From positions 29,978,423-30,042,422 of the forward strand of contig NC_057719.1 in NCBI RefSeq assembly GCF_004010195.1: a DNA stretch of 64,000 bases. The letters are read 5' to 3'. The translations under genes were made by a program, and so were the position numbers. The notes under the pieces were generated by a model that saw nothing but the letters and a program-made list of their open reading frames with translations, was not told the origin of the DNA and did not search any database. This stretch comes from Chiloscyllium plagiosum. Its lineage: Eukaryota. Position 1 is the first letter of the stretch. The number at the start of each line of letters is the position of its first letter. This document shows, in pieces, positions 35,646 to 60,367 of this stretch.

Positions 35646-35863
35646 GGAGAAAGTGAGGTCTGCAGGTGTTGGAGATCAGAGCTGAAAATGTGTTGCTGGA
35701 AAAGCGCAGCAGGTCAGGCAGCATCCAGGGAACAGGAGAATCGACGTTTCGGGCATAAGCCCGGGCATAATTCCTGAAGAAGGGCTTATGCCCGAAACGT
35801 CGATTCTCCTGTTCCCTGGATGCTGCCTGACCTGCTGCGCTTTTCCAGCAACACATTTTCAGC
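35646..35863. mobile_element. Young palindromic PLE-derived insertion
   Basis: 16-bp TSD ccaaatacttctgcag at 35630-35645 and 35864-35879; perfect 82-bp inverted arms at 35681-35762 and 35782-35863. Confidence 0.92.
35771..35805 (+). ncRNA. Minimal type I hammerhead ribozyme motif (PLE-associated)
   Basis: CTGAAGA (35774-35780), an extra A, stem II GGGC-ttat-GCCC, GAAAC, and the GTC cleavage triplet (35799-35801). Stem III is replaced by the palindrome ACGT. Stem I pairing is weak (TTC/GAT). Confidence 0.7.
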
Positions 35864-39680: not shown

Positions 39681-40473
39681 AAAGAAATGGGGGGAGAAAT
39701 ATCAAACATATAAAATGTATAGTAAGATATAGCTAGGTTGAGTTTGAACAAGTTTAATTTATATAAAACTCTTTAAATTGACTGAGGAAGGAAATGCTGA
39801 TTTCCTTCATTGTGTGTTTCTAGGTTCCACAAGTAAGACAATATGATGCTGTTAACCACCATCCTGCTCTCTCATTAAGCTAATCATTCATCTATCCCTT
39901 AATTAATTCTGTAATTGTAAGTTACAAGAGATGCCTGAAGCAAAAGAGATAATCTCTGATAATTCATTTGGTAATTTTGAATCTAATGATTCCTTGTTAA
40001 GTTTAACATTTATGTGGCAGTGATAGTTAAACAGTTCAGTTTGTGTGGAATATTTAATGTGATATAGCAGGTGACTGTTTTTCCCCCAAATGGATGATGG
40101 ATTCCAAGGCTACACAGATGAAATATCTTGCCTCTTAAGGAAGATTTATGTTAAAAAAAAATTTAAAAATCTGAAAAATCTGCAATAAACCTTTTGCTTA
40201 ACACATTTGCTTCAATATTTTGGAGGATGCAAAAGGATTTATTTGTTGAATTTTAAAGTACAATAAGAGGTCACTTGTCCCATTGTCTCTATGGAAGAGC
40301 CATCCCTGCTCTGTTCTCTCTTCAGAACCCAGTAAAATTTAACTTAAATCTAAGAATTAGTTGGTGTTGAGGATGGTATTGAAGATGTATGCTATGCCAA
40401 TTATTACATGATTACTGGAATCGGAATATCAAAGACAAACCAGATAAAGATATTAGTTACATTGCACAGTTTC

Positions 40474-43400
40474 TGAAATAACTCCATAGAAGCTGGTATC
40501 CTGTCACCAAGTCCCCCTTTAGTTGCACGTGGAGAGTCCTTGATGCTGAGCCAGCTCCCTCAGAGTGAATAGGATGTCTAACAGTTCTGTTTTTCTTTTG
40601 AGTGAACAGGATGTCTGACACTCCTGTTTCTTTTTCTTAAACTCCTATTTTTTTCCTTACCCCTACACTATCGCCTAACTGCAGTAGTGCTTATTTTTCC
40701 CCCACACCCATGTTGTGTGTGTGCAGGTGTGAGACACAGTGAAGGACACAAGGTGTACAAGTCTTTGTTCAGTGTCCACCACCAGGAAGAAAAGAAACAC
40801 CAATTGGCCAGTGACAAGCAGTGCCCTTCATATCAAATGACAATGCTGCGTGATCACCAGTGAAGGGGAGGGCAGGGATTAAATCAAAAACAGTCCTGTA
40901 CTTTTTTTTTTGTTTTTCTTTTTTTTTTCTTTTTTACATTTTTTTTTCCCCACACTACCGCCTAACTGCGGTAGTGCTTATTTTTTCCCCAGTACCCATG
41001 GTGTGTGTGTGCCGGTGTGAGACACAGTGAAAGACACAAGGCGCACAAATCTTTATTCAGTTTCCACCACCAGGAAGACAGGAAAACACCCGAGTGGCCA
41101 GTGACGAGCAGTGCCCTTCACATCAAAGGACAGTGCTGTGTGATCAAAACAGTGAAGGGGAAACAGTCCTGTTCATTTTTTTTTTTGTTTTTTTTTGTTT
41201 TATTAAACCCCCACACTACCACCTAACTGTGGTAGTGCTTATTTTTCCCCAGCACCCATGGTGTGTGTGTGTGTGTAGGTGTGAGACACAGTGAAAGACA
41301 CAAAGTGCACGAATCTTTATTCAATTTCCACCACCAGGAAGATAGGAAAACACCCGGGTGGCCAGTGACAAGCACTGCCCTTCACATCAAAGGGCAATGC
41401 TGTGTGATCAAAATAGTGAAGGGGAAACAGTCCTGTTCTTTTTTTCTTTTTTTTCTCTTTTTTTCTTCTTTTTTTTTATATTAACCCCCACACTACCACC
41501 TAATTGCGGTAGTGCTTATTATTACCTGTTTATTTTTTTAAAAAATAATTTAACCCCCACACTACCACCTAAGTGCGGTAGTGCTTATTATATATTTTTT
41601 TTTTCCCCAGCACCCATGGTGTGTGTGTGCGCAGGTGTGAGACACAGTGAAAGACACAAAGTGCACCAATCTTTATTCAATTTCCAGCACCAGGAAGATA
41701 GGAAAACACCCGGGTGGCCAGTGACAAGCACTGCCCTTCACATCAAAGGGCAATGCTGTGTGATCAAAACAGTGAAGGGGAAACAGTCCTGTTCTTTTTT
41801 TTTGAAGGGGAGAGCAAGGAAACATTCTTGTTTATTTATTTATTTATTTTTTCAGTGACAAACACTGCCCTTCACATCAAAGGGCAGTGCTGTGTGATCA
41901 AAACAGTGAAGAGACACCATTTTATTTTATTTTTTTTTTCTCTTCTTTTTCCCCCACACTACCACCTAAGTGCGGTAGTGCTTATTTTATCCCCAGAACC
42001 CATGGTGTGTGTGTGTGCGCAGGTGTGAGACACACTGAAAGACAAAGTGCACGAATCTTTATTCAATTTCCAGCACCAGGAAGACAGGAAAACACCCGGG
42101 TGGCCAGTGACGAGCACTGCCCTTCACATCAAAGGGCAATGCTGTGTGATCAAAACAGTGAAGGGGAAACAGTCCTGTTCTTATCTGTCAGCCAGGGCTC
42201 CCCAATTGGACCAGATTAACAGCCCCAATTAGAGAACTTATTAGGGAATTCTATGAGGTTCATCTGACCTTGTTACAGTCACTACTTCCCTCCCCTTCTG
42301 AGTCCAAGGAGATCCTCGTGGAGTGTTTTAGCACAGAGTTTAGTTCCTCCACCTCTGCCAATGATATGGGCAGCTTGTAACACACAGTAATTTGCCTCTT
42401 GGGCTTGGAGTGTCTTGGAAGAAATTCATTCTCTTCTTAAGGCAGCAAATCTGTCAAGGTGGCAACATCTGCTGTCTCCATCTCAGATTCCAAGGTATCA
42501 TCAACGCTTGACAGAGAGGGAGAACCCATTGGATTCAGAAGAGTCAGAAATGTTATTGAGAGGCAGGCATGTTTTGCTCCTACCTGGTTTGTGGGTTTAC
42601 AGCTTTCATACAGTCCACATGCTTGTTCAGGACCATTGCACCAACCCAAACTTTATATGTCACGACCTGATCTCATGTCGACAATGCCTCTTACCATGCA
42701 GAGCCATTCCATAGGTTCCTACACCAAACTTTGTCCCCTAAAGTAAACTGCCTCTCTTGCTTAGTGGAGTCTTGTGTTCGGCATTGATGTTCCTGATGCC
42801 GTTTCACAAACCTCCATACCCCAGGCCTGGGAAGATCCTATTTAACCTGTTTCAGAGTCTTCTCCCCATTAGCAACGCTGCTAGAGCTAACCCTGTAGTT
42901 GCATGAGAAATAGTCCTATAATCAAATAGAAACCGAGATTGTTAGTATTTAATGAATCCGCAGGCTGTTTCTTTAAGCTTGCTTTCAAAGTTTGGACTGC
43001 TCTTTCCACAAAATCATTGGTTGGTGAATAGTATGGAGTTGTCCTTATATGTCGAATGCCATTCGAATTTACAAAATACTCAAATTCCCTGCAGTAAACT
43101 ATGACCAACGTTTCTGGAAGTTCTGTGTATCGCAAAAGATACACACAGTTTTTCTATCATCATTCCTGTGTTTGATGAATGAACTCAATGCACATGCAGC
43201 TATTTTGAATGGACAGGCACAATCACTAAGAACATTGAGCCCATGAAAGGACCTGCATAGTCGATGTGTAACTAAGTCCAGGGTTTATCTGGCCATTCCA
43301 ACAATTATGGGAAGCTGTTGGCAGTAATTTTTGTCCTTGTTGGCATTCTGGGCACTGCCCCACCAACATGGCGATGTCTACATCCAATCCTGAGAGCCAG

Positions 43401-45808
43401 ACATACCTCCTCACCAATATCCCCATTTTGGGAACACTTGAATGAGGCTGGTAGAGTTCAGCCAGTATCTGGCGATGATCTGAGCTCGGAACAATCACTC
43501 TTGCTCCCCATAATACTATGTGATCTGGTTTGTCCGGGTTCAGAAAGGTTTCAATTCTGGTTGTGATGGCCCTTTTGTTTCCCCTATCATCACCAGCTGT
43601 TTCACATTTGCCATGTGAATAATTGTGGACTCTTTAAGTGATGGTACCACTGGTGGTGTATCTGACAGCGGGAGATGGTGCAATGCCACCCACATTTGTT
43701 ACTTGACTACCTGGACAGTTTTCCAACTTGCAATTATACGCACTTAGTGGTAGAGCCCACCGATGAATTCGGCCTGAAGCTATGGGTGGCACTGCCTTGT
43801 CCTCTTTAAGTAGATCTAGAACCGGTGTGTGGTCCATTATTATTACAAAAAGTCACTTGAGATCATTGTGGCAGCACCTTCAAGGATGATAGCTGTTTCT
43901 TCACTTCCCTAAAAGCTATGGCTTGGCTATGCAACCATTTCCAAGCTGACCCTTTTTTAAGAGTTGATGCAAAGGTGCCAGGATGGAAGCCAGGTTATGT
44001 ATGAACTTTCCATTATAATTCACCAGCCCAAGGAAAGACCGAAGCTGTTATACAGATGTGGACCTATGATTGCCCTCACTTTATCTTGCAACAGATATAA
44101 CTTAGTTTTGTTGACTCTGTGGCCCAAGTAGGTCACTCAGGATGCCTGGAATATCCATTTTTCCTGGATTATGTCATGTTCTCTAAGTGCTCCTTAATGG
44201 TTTTCCCTGTTTATTAGTGTGTCATCTTGATAAATAGCATCCTGGGGTACACCTTGTAAAATGTTCGTCATCTGCTGAAAAATTGCACAGGTTGACAATA
44301 CCCCAAATGATGATCTTGTATATTGATACAAACCTTTATGGGTGTTAATTGTAGCATACTTTTGGGAATCCTCATCTCACCACAATTGCAGGTGTGGATG
44401 GCTCAAGTCCAGCTTCGTGAAGGACAGCACCCCCTGCCAATTTTGTGTATGAGTCCTCTAGGCGAGGGATTGTGTATTTATCCAGTTGTGAAAAGCAGTT
44501 TACAATTCCCCATGAAGGTGAACTGACATGTTGGGCTTCACAATTGGTATGACTGGTGCTGTCCATTCCACAAACTAGATTGGTTTGAAGATTCCTTTGC
44601 TTTCCGGCCTCCTGAATTCTCCCTCTACTTTTGCCCGTAAGCCAAAGGCACTGGACGGGCCTTGCAGTATCATGGAATTGCTTCCTGGTCCATGTGTGAA
44701 GTAGCCATGGCTCCTTGATAGTCCCTAGACGTTCCTGAGAAGCTTCTGGGTATTTAATTAGAACTTCAATCAGTCAAAAAGATTCTAATTGAGAAATGTT
44801 AAACCAATCTAGGTGAATCTTTCTCATTCAATGTTGCCCCATCAATTTTGGACTCGAGACTTTTACTATAATTAGTGGTTCTGAACTAGCAATTCCTCAT
44901 AAGAGACCAGAGCCAAAGTTGTACCCTTAATCTGTAAAGGTTCCCTGGTATAGGTTCTCTGTCGGCTGAGGTCTTGTGCAAACTGAAGGGTTACAGTGCA
45001 GTATGAATTTTGTTAAAGACTGATTCTGTGATCTCTTAAATGGCTGCGCTGGTATTGATCTCCATTAGAAGAGATAACCATTTAACCTGATGTGTATTTT
45101 GAATGGTTCTGGTTTTGGATGTTGCTAAGCAAATTAACTGTCCCATCCGGATGTAAGTAGACTTTACAGAGTGTGCACTCTCCTGGATTCTGGCCTATGA
45201 GTTCTCTTTCACAATTTAGGTCGAGTGGGACTCTTTGCTGTCTCGAGTTCACATACCAGGCCTGGATCCTGAAGAAATTTTTAACTGTTTGTCTGAGGCT
45301 TGGCTTTGTTTTGGGGTTTTATTGTGGGCTGACCGAGAGTTCCTCTGTTCAGGATACGTCCTGAGTCAGGCTAGCAATTGCCCTTACTCAAGTGGTGTTC
45401 CCCAAGCTCGGTTGGACTGGCAAGGGTGTCCACTTCCATTGGAGTACCCTGCAACTCATATGCTCCACTTGCTGCACTTTCTAATGATAAAGCCAGTTGC
45501 AGTGCCTGTTTGAAGTCCAGTTGGCCTTAGCTTTTGCATAGTTACATCATTAGTCGCACTCTTATCGCCACTGAAATAGTTCAACAGAGGCTGATAACTT
45601 GTCACCAAGTCACCCTTTATTCACACGTGGAGAGTCCTTGACACTGATCCAGCTCCCTCAGAGCCCAGCTGCCAGAGTGAACAGGATGTCTGACGTTCCT
45701 ATTCTTACCTGTCAGCCAGGCCTCCCTGATTGGCACAGTGAATCTGGTCCAGTCAGGGAACTCATGTTCTACCAAGTCCACCTTGCTGATCTCATTACAA
45801 TCATTACA
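40474..45808 (-). mobile_element. Decayed Ty3/Gypsy LTR retrotransposon
   Basis: Homologous LTRs at 45572-45808 and 40474-42286 (the latter split by a tandem array). PBS-like TGGCGATAAGAG (minus, 45559-45570) and PPT GGGGAGGGA (minus, ~42287-42295). Remnants in the order PR (~45050) - RT (~44000-44600) - RNaseH (IASGRIHRWALPLSAY) - integrase zinc finger (RRYVWLSGLDVDI...CPECQ) - integrase core (GIRHIRTTPYYSPTNDFVERAVQTLK). Confidence 0.9.
40660..42180 (-). repeat. Tandem array of ~230-240 bp units separated by T-rich tracts (5 full + 2 partial)
   Basis: Full units at ~40660-40901, 40948-41174, 41208-41438, 41554-41794 and 41951-42180; partials at ~41485-41520 and ~41853-41911. Confidence 0.92.
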
Positions 45809-47138
45809 GGTTTGTTATAAATACCTTTAAAGTAATGTTCACAAAGTTAAATTAAGGAAAATTTCAAATAAGAGAAGTCTTTTTAAGCAAGTACCATAGA
45901 TTTATATTCATAGGAGCAATGGCCACATTTCATTCCTTGCCCCTTCTCTTCCCCTATACTATGAAATTGAGAACGGGACTGAGCTGCAACTGAAGGTCTA
46001 AGAAGAATGGGCAACCTTTGGCTATTCTAATGGTAATTTCAGACAGACGCATTGAAATCAGACTTTCCTATCTTATTTCCATGGGTGCGTTTGCTATAAT
46101 TTTGTTGCAGATGAAAGTACATTGCTTGTTTCACCTATTTGCAAAAGATTTGGAAATGGAAATACAGCATCAAAGGTTATGGAGATGGTTCTCTGTCCCT
46201 TTTCCCTTCCCATGAAATTTATGAAATGAGCATTGTCCAATTTCTGCAGGAAGGAATATTAGGGCTACCACAGAATCAAAGTGAGTTTTCTTTCAAGATG
46301 GCGGAAATATACTCCCTTTTTTTATAATAAGAGTAACATTGCAGAAAGGTGTGTCAGACTCTTCGAGCCAACAGTGAAAACCCCTTTGTTTGAATTTGAC
46401 ACGGTTATTGAAAGGTTATTGAACAATCACAAACAAATGGAACATACAGTAAACATGTATGGTATCTGTTTAATTCTCAGCTGACGTTTTACATTTTTAT
46501 GAAAGAATTGCCATTCAACAAGTGTCAAGGAACGTGTGAGAGAAGGGTATTTTTATAACATAGTTTTTTCTGAAAAATACATATTTTGAGATGTTTATAA
46601 CTGATCAAATCTATTGAAGTGTGTAAAATAAGTTGCTGGTTGGCTGCTGTGCAGTTGTCTTCACCAGTCCAAGTGTCTTGACTGTCCAGTCCATTAGGAT
46701 AGAAAACAGCTTGATTTAAAACAAAAGCAAACAAGGTCATATTGTTGGTAACACAATTGGAGAGCTGATGGAACATTTCCTGGAATTATACTGCAGAGAT
46801 GTTCGAGGAAAATCTGCCCATAATGGCAACACTGGATATCAAACTCATGGTGGAGAGGTCACATGTTACATTTGTGGAAGAATCTTCTGAGTTATCGGCA
46901 AAAGTGATAAAACTAACGTAGTATCACTTTTAGTGGAATGGGTTTCTTTGTTATGGCTGAAAAAAAAATGGCATAAAGTGCAACAGGAACAAAAGACACA
47001 TCATTAAATGTGTATTTTATCCAGAAAATATTTGAGACTTATTACCAAATCCATTTAAGATTCTGTCCTAATTTCTGGCAATATGGACATTCCTAGATAG
47101 GATGTCTTCGAGGTGTCTGCAAGATTTGATTAAAAACT

Positions 47139-49981: not shown

Positions 49982-52900
49982 TTAGAACATTACAGTGCAG
50001 TACAGGCCCTTCGGCCCTCACTGTTGCGCCACCCTGTGAAACCAATCTGAAGCCTGTTTAACCTACACTATTTCATTCTCGTCCATATGCCTACCCAATG
50101 ACCATTTAAATGCCTGTAAATTTGGTGAGTCTACTACTGTTGCAGGCAATGCATTCCACGCCCCTACTACTCTCAGTAAAGAAACTACCTCTGACATCTG
50201 TCCTATATCTATCACCCCTCAATTTCAAACTATGCCCCCTCATGCTAGCCATCACCACCCGAGGAAAAAGGCTCTCGCTGTCCACCTGATCTAACCCTCT
50301 GATTATCTTAGGTCTCAATTAAGTCCCGCCTCAACTTCTCTCGAACAAAAACAGCCTCAAGTCCCTCAACCTTTCCTTATAAGACCTTCCCTCCATACCT
50401 GGCAACATCCTAGTAAATCTTCTCTGAACCCTTTCCAAACCTTCCACATCCTTCCTATAATGCGGTGACTAGAACTGCACACAATACTCCAAGTGTGGAC
50501 GCACCAGAGTTTTGTACAGCTGCAGCATAACCTCATGGTTCTGAAACTCGACCCCTCTGCCATTAAAAACTAACACACCGTATGCCTTCTTACCAGCCCT
50601 ATCAACCTGGGTGGCAGCTTTGAGGGATCTATGTAAAAGGACACCGAGATCTCTCTGCTCATCTACACCATCAAGAATCTTACCATTCGCCCAGTACTCT
50701 GCATTCCTGTTACTCCTTCCAAAGTGAATCATCTCATACGTTCCTACATTAAACTCCATTTGCCACCTCTCAACACAACTCTGCAGTTTATCTATGTCAC
50801 TCTGTAACCCACAACATCCTTCGGCACTATCCACAACTGTACCAACCTTAGTGTCATCTGCAATTTAACTAACCCATCCTTCTACGCCCTCATCCAGGTC
50901 TTTTATAAAAATGACAAACAGCAGTGGACCCAAAACAAATCCTTGTGGTACAAAACTAGTAACTGAACTCCAGGATGAACACTTTACATCAACCACCACA
51001 CTCTGTCTTCATTCAGCTAGCCAATTTCTGATCCAAACCGTTAAATTGCCCTCCATTCCATGCCTCCACATTTTGTGCAGTAGCCTATCATGGGGAACTT
51101 TATCAAATGCCTTACTGAAGTCCATATACACCACATCAACGGCTTTACCCTCATCCACCTGTTTGGTCACCTTCTCAAAGAACTCAGTAAGGTGTGGGAG
51201 GCACAACCTATCCTTCACAAAACTGTGTTGACTATCCCTAATGAACTTATTCCTATTGCGATGGTTATAAATCCCATCTCTTATAACCTTTTCCAACACT
51301 TCACCCACAACTGAAGGAAGGCTGACTGGTCTATAATTACCAGGATTGTCTCTATCCCCTTCTTGAACAAGGGAACAACATTTGCAACCCTCCAGTTTTC
51401 TGGCACAATTCCTGTGGACAACGATGACACAAAGCTCAAAGCCATGGCTCGGCAATCTCCTCCCTGGCTTCTTAGGGAATCCCAAGATAAATCCCATCTG
51501 ACCCAGGGGATTTATCTATTTTCACACTTTCCAGAATTTCTAACACCTCCTCTTTGTGAGCCTCAATCCCATTTTGTCTGGTAGCCTGTTACTCAGTATT
51601 CTCCTTGACAACATTGTCTTTTTCCAGTGTGAATACTGACAAAAATATTCATTTAGCGCTTCTCCTATCTCTTCTGACTCCACGCACAACCTCCCACTAC
51701 TATCCTCGATTAGCTCTAATCTTACTCTACTCATTCTTTTATCCCTTATAAGAGATAGGATTTATAATCATCTCGCAAGCAACAATTTGATTGGAGATAG
51801 TCAACATAGTTTCATCAAGGGCAGGTTGTGTCTCACAAACCTCATTGAGGTTTTTGAGAAGGTGACCAAGCATGTGGATGAGGGTAGAGCAGTTGATTTG
51901 GTGTACATGGACTTCAGTAAAGCCTTTGATAAGGTTCCATGTGGTAGGCTTTTGGAGAAAATGCGGAGGTATGGGATTGAGGGTGATTTCGCAGTTTGGA
52001 TTAGAAATTGGCTTTCTGTAAGAAGGCAACGAGTGGTGGTTGATGGAAAATATTCAGCCTGGTGTCCAGTTACTAGTGGTATGCCATAAGGATCTGTTTT
52101 GGGACCACTGTTTGTCATTTTTATAAATGACTTGGACGCAGGCATAGGTGAATGGGTTAGTAAGTTTGCAGATGACACTAAAGTCGGTGGAGAGGTGTAC
52201 ATTGTGGAACAACATTGCAGGTTGCAGGGAGGGGGACTTGGATAAACTGCAGAATTGGGCTGAGAGGTGGCAAATGGAGTTCAATGTAGATAAATGTGAG
52301 GTGATTCACTTTGGGAAGAATAATAGGAAGGCAGAATACTGGGTCAATGGAAAGATTCTTGGTAGTGTGGATGTGCAGAGGGATCTTAGTGTCCATGTAC
52401 ATAGATCTCTGAAAGTTGCCACCCAGGTGGATAGTGCTGTTAAGGCAGCATGCGGTGTGTTAGGTTTTATTGGTACAGGGATTGAGTTCCAGAGCTGTGA
52501 TGTCATGCTGCAACTATACAAAACGCTGGTGCGGCTTCACTTGGAACATTGTGTTCATTTCTGGTCGCCCCATTAAGATGTGGAAACATTGGAAAAGAGG
52601 AGATTTATCAGGATTTTGCCTAGTTTTATGTGGAAAGGCTGAGGGACTTGGGTCTGTACTCATTGGAGAGAAAAAAGCTAAAAGGGGGTTTAGTAGAGAC
52701 ATACAAGATGATCAGAGTATTAGATAGGGTGGACAGTGAGAGTCTTTTTCCTATGATGATGATGTCGGCTTGTACAAGGGGGCATAGTTGCAAATTCAGG
52801 GGTGATAGATTTAGGACAGATGTCAGAGGCAGGTTCTTTACTCAGAGTGGTAAGGGCGTGAAATGCCCTACCTACCAATGTAGTTAACTCAGCCACATTA

Positions 52901-53465
52901 GGGGCATTTAAACAGTCCTTGGATAAGCATATGGATAATGATGGAATAATGTAGGGGGACGGGCTTAGATTAGTTCATAGGTCGGCGCAATATCGAGGGC
53001 TGACAAGCCTGTTCTGTGCTGTATTGTTCTATGTTCTATATATATATATCTATAAAAAACTTTAGCCTTTTCCCCAACTATCCGCCAACAACTTCTCATG
53101 TCCCCTCCTTGCTCGTCTTAGCTCTCTCTTTAGGTCCTTCCTGGCCACCTTGTTCCTCTCAATCACCCTAACTGAGCTTCACATCTCATCCTAACTTAAG
53201 CCTTCTTCTTGCTCTTGACAAGAGATTCAACTCCTTTGTAAACCATGGCTCCTGCACTCAACAACTTCCTCCCTGTCTGACGGTACATACTTATCAAAGA
53301 CACACAGTAGCTGTTCCTTGAATAAGCTCCACATTTCTATTGTGCCCATCCCCTGCAGTTTCCTTCCCCATCCTTTGGATCCTAAATCTTGTCTAATCGC
53401 ATCTAATTGCCTTTCCCCAGCTTTATCTTTTGCCCTCCGGTATATACCTATCCCTTTCCATTGCT
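49982..53465 (-). mobile_element. CR1 LINE (second subfamily), split by a nested CR1
   Basis: RT motifs in ORFs 50469-50834, 51009-51497 and 51540-51734; the sequence resumes at ~53050 (aacttctcatgtcccctcc) after the nested copy. Confidence 0.9.
51746..53040 (+). mobile_element. 5'-truncated CR1 nested in opposite orientation
   Basis: [26 protein letters not shown] and KFADDTK on +; tail tgttctatgttctat at ~53025-53039. Confidence 0.92.
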
Positions 53466-58732: not shown

Positions 58733-60367
58733 AGAAAGTGAGGTCTGCAGATGCTGGAGATCAAAATTGAAACTTTATTGCTGGAACAGCACAGCAGGTC
58801 AGGCAGCATCCAGGGAACAGGAGATTCGACGCTCCGGGCACAGGCCCTTCTTCAGGAATGAGAGGCAGAGAGCTTCTTCAAGGAAGGCATCCTTGTAAGA
58901 GGATTCGCAGTAGGTTGAAATCTTCGAGGAGAAAGTGAGATCTGCAGATGCTGGAGATCAAAGTTGAAACTTTATTGCTGGAACAGCACAGCAGGTCAGG
59001 CAGCATCCAGGGAACAGGAGATTCGACGCTTCGNNNNNNNNNNNNNNNNNNNNNNNNNNNNNNNNNNNNNNNNNNNNNNNNNNNNNNNNNNNNNNNNNNN
59101 NNNNNNNNNNNNNNNNNNNNNNNNNNNNNNNNNNNNNNNNNNNNNNNNNNNNNNNNNNNNNNNNNNNNNNNNNNNNNNNNNNNNNNNNNNNNNNNNNNNN
59201 NNNNNNNNNNNNNNNNNNNNNNNNNNNNNNNNNNNNNNNNNNNNNNNNNNNNNNNNNNNNNNNNNNNNNNNNNNNNNNNNNNNNNNNNNNNNNNNNNNNN
59301 NNNNNNNNNNNNNNNNNNNNNNNNNNNNNNNNNNNNNNNNNNNNNNNNNNNNNNNNNNNNNNNNNNNNNNNNNNNNNNNNNNNNNNNNNNNNNNNNNNNN
59401 NNNNNNNNNNNNNNNNNNNNNNNNNNNNNNNNNNNNNNNNNNNNNNNNNNNNNNNNNNNNNNNNNNNNNNNNNNNNNNNNNNNNNNNNNNNNNNNNNNNN
59501 NNNNNNNNNNNNNNNNNNNNNNNNNNNNNNNNNNNNNNNNNNNNNNNNNNNNNNNNNNNNNNNNNNNNNNNNNNNNNNNNNNNNNNNNNNNNNNNNNNNN
59601 NNNNNNNNNNNNNNNNNNNNNNNNNNNNNNNNNNNNNNNNNNNNNNNNNNNNNNNNNNNNNNNNNNNNNNNNNNNNNNNNNNNNNNNNNNNNNNNNNNNN
59701 NNNNNNNNNNNNNNNNNNNNNNNNNNNNNNNNNNNNNNNNNNNNNNNNNNNNNNNNNNNNNNNNNNNNNNNNNNNNNNNNNNNNNNNNNNNNNNNNNNNN
59801 NNNNNNNNNNNNNNNNNNNNNNNNNNNNNNNNNNNNNNNNNNNNNNNNNNNNNNNNNNNNNNNNNNNNNNNNNNNNNNNNNNNNNNNNNNNNNNNNNACC
59901 ACCAGCAAGGACCTCAGCTACCGAATGGTCTTTAAAACTGCGTTTTCCTCAGTGTTGAGCGAAAACTCCCATGACTCCAAAGTGTTTGGGATATGGGAGT
60001 GATTCAAACCTCCTAAAATCAGCAAGTTACAGATTGTAAATCAAAACCCTACACAGCAGAAACAGGACCTCATCTGGTCCCTCAAGTGAACCTGTTCCTG
60101 CACTGTGATTGGCCACCTTTCTCCAAACCCTACTCGTCACTATGATTTGATCTCTCCCTGCCTCCTCAATCTCCCCACACCTTGACCTCTTTCCACCTAT
60201 CACATTTCCAACTCCCCTCCTCCAAGTCCCTCCTCCCTACCTTTTATCTTCTCCTGCTGAACACTCTCTGCTCATTCCTGAAGAAGGGCCTGCGCCCAAA
60301 ACGTCGAATCTCCTGTTCCCTGGATGCTGCCTGACCTGCTGTGCTGTTCCAGCAATAAAGTTTCAAC
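58733..60367. mobile_element. Young Penelope-like insertion with tandem and inverted terminal repeats, spanning an assembly gap
   Basis: 15-bp TSD ttagagtatacaagg at 58718-58732 and 60368-60382; two direct repeat copies (~58731-58860, 58928-59033) and one inverted copy (~60271-60369); hammerhead-like motifs at 58828-58855 (-) and 60278-60305 (+). Confidence 0.85.
59034..59897. other. Assembly gap (N run)
   Basis: 864 consecutive N. Confidence 1.

Follow-up and report, generated by a model that had tools for sequence, protein, structure and literature searches.

The window, that is, the whole stretch of 64,000 nucleotides of shark DNA that was analysed, contains a decayed minus-strand Gypsy-type element whose left LTR is interrupted by an array of five full units (u1 to u5), three fragments (p1, p2, and a 17-nt piece), and three stutters consisting of a T-run only. 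On the plus strand, the order is three stutters, u1, u2, u3, p1, u4, the 17-nt fragment, p2, u5, and the remaining LTR, with the features arranged as follows.

40474-40562, minus strand: left (3′) LTR, part left of the target, 84% identical to 45571-45663.
40563-40659, no strand: stutters, in which a T-run alone comes after each of three target copies of 29, 29, and ~11 bp (sequence, motif scan).
40660-40889, minus strand: u1, retaining ~20 nt more of the parent element; the same extension occurs in dispersed copies.
40890-40947, no strand: target copy and 46-nt T-rich linker (motif scan).
40948-41161, minus strand: u2, with 6 states in common with u1 against u3-u5, and its 5′ junction in common with u3-u5.
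41162-41207, no strand: target copy and 33-nt linker (motif scan).
41208-41425, minus strand: u3 (BLAST, alignment).
41426-41484, no strand: target copy and 44-nt linker (motif scan).
41485-41531, minus strand: p1, a 38-nt 3′ tip (~41485-41522) comprising the tail-proximal hairpin; a short remnant of the target, CCTGTT, comes after it.
41554-41781, minus strand: u4, containing an 11-nt AT insertion.
41782-41833, no strand: target copy, T9, 17-nt internal fragment of the parent element (41804-41820), and degenerate target copy.
41853-41911, minus strand: p2, an internal fragment (inner hairpin) without the 3′ end, 95-97% identical to the units.
41951-42167, minus strand: u5 (BLAST, alignment, run data).
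42168-42182, no strand: rightmost target copy, 15 bp; the inferred priming nick TT/A lies at 42182/42183, and joints from other loci land at 42167-42187.
42183-42277, minus strand: remainder of the left LTR, to the right of the target; this LTR family is also high-copy.
42278-45571, minus strand: broken internal region of the Gypsy-type element, with reverse transcriptase (RT) and then an integrase zinc finger.
45572-45808, minus strand: right (5′) LTR, containing the empty site (nick at 45706/45707).

A preliminary description of the locus had reported five full and two partial units, and these were found by both sequence comparison and BLAST, with u3 as the query giving matches confined to the array within the 64-kb window (E 1e-12 to 1e-98). 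To p1 and p2, however, a third fragment has to be added, namely the 17-nt piece at 41804-41820, which has a target-like copy of its own. The stuttered host-LTR duplications that had been placed near 40563-40655 were also observed, as three stutters at 40563-40659, and from their letters may be read as tail-only insertions. The proposal of a host motif copy at every unit held for u1 to u5, each showing 0-1 mismatch in 12, but p1 and p2 are followed by remnants only. Judged against the empty right LTR, a target duplication of 13-15 bp follows 5 of 5 full units; in the motif scan, the 12-bp target core ACAGTCCTGTTC was found to be exact after u2-u5 and to contain one mismatch after u1, and the degenerate copy after the 17-nt fragment showed 3 mismatches in 12. 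The T-rich linkers and stutters (n = 10) are 9-46 nt long with a T content of 58-100%. When linker pairs were compared with shuffles, one of 10 fell under 5% (17/500, with a negative score), the likeness being one of T composition alone; the tails were thus found to differ from unit to unit, as had been claimed. Furthermore, the bodies of u4 and u5 are 97% alike, yet their tail junctions differ. Separate insertion events are favoured by these unrelated linkers and by the different tail junctions of the two closest bodies.

With respect to the host, a Pfam scan of the minus strand returned RVT_1 (E 3.5e-4, residues 374-493) followed by Integrase_H2C2 (E 1.7e-6, residues 694-746), both with weak E-values and in broken frames. 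The LTRs flank pol and the RT lies ahead of the integrase, which is the arrangement of Ty3/Gypsy elements. The right LTR had been described as uninterrupted, and the empty target, CCTATTCTTACCTGTCAGCC, was indeed located there at 45698-45717, as the counterpart of the filled site at 42174-42193; these are the only 2 matches in the window, with 0.03 expected by chance. The two halves of the left LTR show identities of 0.841 and 0.724 with the right LTR, and the sequences flanking the element (40468-40473 and 45809-45813) agree at just 4 of 5 bases as a target duplication. With this flank mismatch and such unevenly diverged LTR halves (84% and 72%), the Gypsy-type element is old or recombinant. 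An inverted repeat (GAACAGGA ... TCCTGTTC), at 45680-45704 and 40604-40629, has the target at its 3′ foot; the fold of the right-LTR repeat was not better than that of shuffles (z -0.87), and a structural role of the repeat in targeting is therefore unsupported. On the minus strand, which is the Gypsy sense strand, the empty site at 45698-45712 reads CAG/GTAAGA, a splice-donor consensus situated right at the inferred nick.

Pairwise identities between units were 0.972 (u4/u5), 0.967 (u3/u4), and 0.953 (u3/u5), with 0.924-0.934 between u2 and u3-u5 and 0.854-0.889 between u1 and the others; private changes in 207 ungapped columns numbered 21 in u1, 4 in u2, 3 in u3, 1 in u4, and 2 in u5. These identities and counts show that u1 is much older, and that u2-u5 came close together, after divergence of the LTRs. 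The units u2-u5 (92.4-97.2%) are more alike than the LTR halves (84% and 72%), in agreement with the earlier view that the array is younger than the Gypsy-type element. Of the two minus-strand hairpins ascribed to each unit, both fold in u3-u5 (-15 to -16 kcal/mol), but the inner one is decayed in u1 and u2. The whole-u5 fold gave z = -2.0, with 7 of 200 shuffles equally good. In the two stems, non-Watson-Crick cells are G-U in 16 cases (6 pairs) on the minus strand and in 1 on the plus strand, with 3 mismatches; these stem variants weakly favour the minus strand, the copies being related, and a covariation score over 7 related rows was not above that of shuffles. AATAAA, said to occur in most units, is present in 4 of 5. 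As a cleavage signal for the unit tail it was rejected, being too distant at 104-120 nt from the tail.

A search of sequencing runs listed 24 runs, 20 of them matching part of the stretch, from 3 organisms and 9 studies. Four runs were compared with u5 plus 630 bp of its right flank (41912-42800), namely X4, X11 (organism B), X17 (organism C), and a poly(A) single-cell RNA run. The summed depth over the unit was 1.2-4.1 million in X4, compared with 24 for the locus-specific contig (42209-42435, 0 differences), and 0.18-1.1 million versus about 18 in X11; X17 also covers the unit. The unit is accordingly present in roughly 10^4-10^5 copies, an order of magnitude only, depth being no true copy number. 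The LTR part is also repetitive, at about 10^4, with X4 depth ratios corresponding to 51-172 thousand copies of the unit versus 7-17 thousand of the LTR. Since the unit copies are several-fold more numerous than the LTR copies in this run, the LTR is not the sole target, and other targets are needed.

Loose ends at 42166-42167 lead into the extension that u1 retains, u1 running ~20 nt beyond the end of u2-u5, in 454 RNA reads, 69 X4 contigs, and 9 X17 contigs, with median extensions of 42-46, 15, and 168 nt, respectively. Because most dispersed copies and RNA reads continue past the end of u2-u5, the unit is the 5′-truncated 3′ part of a dispersed poly(A) element that is longer, very abundant, and found in three organisms. 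The idea of a distinct ~230-bp non-autonomous retroposon is thus not supported, with most copies running on into sequence kept by u1. The first 30 nt of the extension, on the minus strand, contain a short open frame with a stop just before the unit; it is too short to classify, and by its likeness alone we guess it to be the end of an ORF2. In the poly(A) single-cell RNA run, 97% of the unit depth has the first mate on the plus strand, a bias that fits minus-strand, oligo-dT-primed RNA; priming on genomic A-tails would look alike. Contig depth was also observed to peak at 42122-42151 (the inner hairpin), at 2-3 times that of the 3′ tip, in three contig runs, and to be flat in the RNA reads, reflecting either assembly bias or a second family with this segment in common.

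Joints between the unit and the LTR at other loci provide information on target preference. Among the joints listed (15 of 400 and 12 of 75 rows), 14 distinct ones, all from X4, start within the unit, each represented by one contig. Twelve of these connect 12 different cut points (42015, 42039, 42044, 42059, 42082, 42100, 42109, 42110, 42111, 42130, 42131, and 42137) to 42167-42187, that is, to 21 bp of the LTR; of the remaining 2, one is internal, and the other returns to the unit start via a target-like piece and T9, representing a head-to-tail pair at another locus. None of the 14 lands further right in the LTR or in the internal region, and the chance of finding 12 of 12 in 42167-42187 on a 49-nt background is 4e-5, the joints being single contigs from one run, with a short side of 21-45 letters, and visible only with both sides in 41912-42800. 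Seven landing points (42167-42174) imply 9-16-bp duplications before the TT/A nick at 42182/42183, and 5 lie at 42182-42187, mostly with target-like letters between. Overall, the 5′ truncation varies and the 3′ end is fixed, as seen from the 12 cut points, u1, and p1; the exceptions are u2-u5, which have one 5′ point, and p2 and the 17-nt piece, which are without the 3′ end. The pattern is one of repeated target-primed insertion with target preference. The preliminary description had suggested checking dispersed copies for such a preference, which the 12 of 14 listed joints display. It had also denied that the array is an ordinary satellite, and had proposed that L1/Tx1-type machinery inserts the unit again and again at a target that each insertion regenerates; both views are borne out by the many dispersed copies, differently truncated and joined to the same LTR site, the clade being one that we infer.

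The units are thus quite probably 3′ ends stacked by re-insertion and derived from an abundant non-LTR retroelement with a poly(A) tail, which is likely a Tx1-clade LINE or is moved by one; the unit is probably the 3′ UTR of this parent. An endonuclease would cut the LTR on its plus strand, at ...CCTGTTCTT/A, and the T-ended primer would pair with the poly(A) of the element RNA. Reverse transcription would then halt early, at variable points, and a staggered second nick would lead to duplication of 9-16 bp (sometimes 29 bp) of the target. This duplication would restore the site, allowing later insertions to stack head to tail, each with its own tail. Target-primed reverse transcription from a T-ended nick would account for the tail and the duplication, and likewise for the polarity of truncation and for stutters made of a tail only. 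It does not explain why u5 and p2 carry u2-like states in patches, or why p2 and the 17-nt piece have no 3′ end. A protein search for a link between the unit and ORF2 or RT, made with the longest open minus frame against proteins of 71-2000 aa, gave no match, and a second search with this frame returned one unrelated tandem-repeat protein only. Pfam detected no L1/Tx1 RT among the 39 of 73 window ORFs scanned (at least 90 aa), and the RT fragments of the window that were examined look CR1/L2-like.

Membership of the parent in Tx1 is likely by comparison with known systems. Tx1 falls within the L1 clade (PMC3747384, PMC5203782, in excerpt). It is rather unlikely that the parent is instead a long SINE-like element or another poly(A) element from outside the L1 superfamily (for example, RLE-type or Nimb/Vingi-type): the upstream extension is visible for 30 nt only, with no protein link, but the poly(A) tail, the 9-16-bp duplications, the TT/A nick, and the preference for a transposon target all match Tx1 as characterised in the excerpted text of PMC4494074, and Tx1 is reported from cartilaginous fish, including the whale shark, where a full LINE1 was not found according to the excerpt of PMC8455134. 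Neither a tRNA, 5S, 7SL, or snRNA head nor a defined 5′ end, by which SINEs are recognised, was found in the unit, although such a head may lie further upstream. A Helentron/Helitron2-like DNA element with terminal hairpins, inserting at T-runs, would share the two hairpins, the (CA)n tract, the T-rich ends, and the 8/10 complementarity of the u2-u5 ends, but is exceedingly improbable and largely refuted by the polarised truncation, which varies on one side only, the supposed end being no family end and target duplications being present, whereas such elements have fixed termini and no target duplication.

In crocodilians, Tx1-Mar and SINEU-3 insert at fixed positions in Mariner-N4_AMi and duplicate 16 bp there, SINEU-3 also occurs in tandems whose copies, "sandwiching a TSD", are explained by sequential insertion, and Tx1-8_Crp and Tx1-4_AMi prefer LTR retrotransposons (PMC4494074, in excerpt; Kojima, 2015). 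As far as that excerpt extends, both systems comprise poly(A) retroposons at a fixed site in an abundant transposon, with a ~16-bp duplication, tandems around the duplication, and some families preferring LTR elements. The shark array differs in being found in a different host clade, at a different target sequence, with as many as 8 pieces at one site in addition to tail-only stutters, in having no visible snRNA-derived head and four copies with one truncation point, and in that its RT was not recovered. In the same source, a family is regarded as target-specific when >20% of its flanks are of one repeat type; here, 12 of 14 listed joints lie at one LTR site, set against a unit depth several-fold higher than the LTR depth. 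Tx1L in Tx1D (Xenopus), Kibi/Koshi on (TC)n/(TTC)n, and Keno in U2 snRNA genes are likewise target-preferring APE-type LINEs (PMC4494074, PMC4640811, both in excerpt), and the pyrimidine-rich target of the shark unit resembles that of Kibi/Koshi but differs in being an LTR site. A Keno-type target mimicking U2 was considered and rejected, the 11-nt match to the U2 site having the opposite orientation and the other motif end. Drosophila R1 arrays have in common with the shark array head-to-tail non-LTR copies split by duplicated target; excerpts describe a two-step model of multiple (double) insertion followed by local expansion through unequal exchange (10.1101/158386), and homology-set 5′ junctions in melanogaster-type R1 (PMC2718515). 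R1, however, is a different clade with an rDNA target and full-length units, whereas the shark array consists of 3′ tips. By analogy, the mechanism would be like that of crocodilian Tx1/SINEU and Drosophila R1, already in print, with the shark family as a further case.

The array is therefore real and mostly explained by a known mechanism; the oddity is that four copies are cut at one base. Units u2-u5 have the identical 5′ base despite bodies of two sequence types, and genome-wide their junction is seldom found: no more than ~4-5 of the RNA reads at 42172 are compatible with it, versus 454 running on, and none of the 12 listed target joints in X4 uses it. Rare variants are also held in common, namely a G at 42073 in u4 and u5 (0.4-3.3% of depth in four runs) and a G at 42112 in u2 and u5 (0.2-3.0% of depth), each with a ~1% chance under independent draws, and these indicate local copying or a common private source. 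The preliminary description had set as a check whether the array units form one clade with no dispersed copies; dispersed copies are abundant, but the units do have these rare variants in common. On the other hand, u2 agrees with u1 against u3-u5 at 6 sites, and at one of them, 42099, both states occur genome-wide (A in 2% of X4, 64% of X11, 85% of X17, and 29% of RNA), indicating two source subfamilies. The other five sites are absent among the top 40 variants listed (422 further rows follow), from which the u3-u5 states would be the common ones genome-wide, an assumption being made on how the variant table is ranked.

Resident-guided joining, read-through RNA, or local duplication probably contributed to the common junction of u2-u5. 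The reading that we tentatively favour is that new cDNA pairs with the end of a resident unit exposed by a longer staggered cut. Such pairing would reconcile the common junction, the rare shared variants, and the two subfamilies, and a 29-bp duplication does exist, at 40563-40628. A precedent for resident-guided junctions was found neither in the excerpted text of PMC1920257 nor in the literature searched. More generally, it is conceivable, if doubtful, that a resident truncated LINE tail sets the 5′ junction of later insertions, via either an exposed end that pairs with cDNA of any source copy or LTR read-through RNA, and so acts as a self-templating landing pad. If this is true, random LINE truncations would become equal-length, individually tailed units, and a satellite-like array could arise by retrotransposition alone.

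Local DNA duplication or conversion is possible but somewhat doubtful: one or two insertions would have been followed by local duplication (unequal exchange or slippage) and gene conversion to give u2-u5, the T-linkers having later diverged by slippage. This would explain the identical 5′ junction and the rare variants, as well as the ladder-like identities and the way u5 combines states of the u4 and u2 types, and unequal exchange has been described as a means by which double insertions expand (10.1101/158386, in excerpt). However, the linkers are alike in composition only, although the bodies differ by a mere 3-8%, u2 sides with u1 at the six sites with 42099 polymorphic genome-wide, and u1, p1, the 17-nt piece, and the stutters are not accounted for.

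A contribution of LTR read-through RNA to the junction is less probable, and its fuller version is unlikely. In the latter, a narrower version of the idea in the preliminary description, an LTR-embedded copy would be co-transcribed from the same-strand Gypsy/LTR promoter, with the target at the RNA 5′ end, and re-inserted in trans at a homology-set junction, giving rise to a fixed-length non-autonomous subfamily. The units share the minus strand with the Gypsy ORFs, RNA over the LTR part is biased towards one strand as it is over the unit (58-90 versus 13-16), and both the exact junction and the new tails would follow; precedents are the SINEU-2B master in Mariner-N4_AMi (PMC4494074) and R1 transcripts with upstream 28S (PMC2718515), both in excerpt. 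The few RNA reads that fit the junction and its absence from the listed target joints nevertheless argue against this subfamily, and one junction lineage predicts one body type, whereas two are seen. A truncation hot spot is improbable. An assembly artefact is exceedingly improbable: no displayed contig or long read spans the array, the run comparison having covered u5 and its right flank, but the units differ by 3-15%, the linkers are distinct, and 8 organism A runs from 2 studies contain 42-65% of 228 sampled words from 40300-42700, of which one run may be the source sample.

The parent is apparently an undescribed high-copy elasmobranch family targeting the LTR, that is, a very abundant cartilaginous-fish retroelement with a preferred site within an LTR family. 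No description of it was found in the literature searched, including that on Tx1 in sharks; the family is probably unnamed, or at least undescribed, and a name may exist in Repbase or Dfam, which lay outside the search. Unit motifs gave isolated matches in full-text literature, with titles unrelated to fish repeats among the matches listed. LINEs that prefer a target attract interest both as tools for site-directed insertion and as an example of a transposon for which another transposon serves as a safe place to land, and the present array offers a test case for the origin of tandem arrays by repeated insertion, local duplication, or resident-guided re-insertion. Rfam showed nothing near the gathering score, and no ribozyme or RNA-gene head, in the array and window. 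Exact unit patterns were absent from the prokaryote genomes, metagenomes, and viral contigs scanned, a single 22-nt viral match being taken as chance.

Elsewhere in the window, a CR1-type ORF has rays and sharks as its best named vertebrate relatives (60-68%), which marks the genome as elasmobranch-like. The top match, a protein labelled Proteus mirabilis (P0002) from a 1.7-kb contig, is 92% identical to this ORF and likely represents fish DNA in a bacterial assembly, that is, contamination. Two CR1/L2-type RT copies lie inverted at 50062-52955, with 75-81% complementarity over several arms. At 35681-35863, two copies of a ~95-nt repeat face each other, forming perfectly matched inverted arms of 82 nt that are separated by 19 nt. 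The copy at 35770 has a CTGAAGA-stem-GAAAC-GTC layout, which resembles the minimal hammerhead found in Penelope-like elements and which matched nothing in Rfam at the gathering score. An 864-N gap at 59034-59897 also has copies of the ~95-nt repeat on its flanks.
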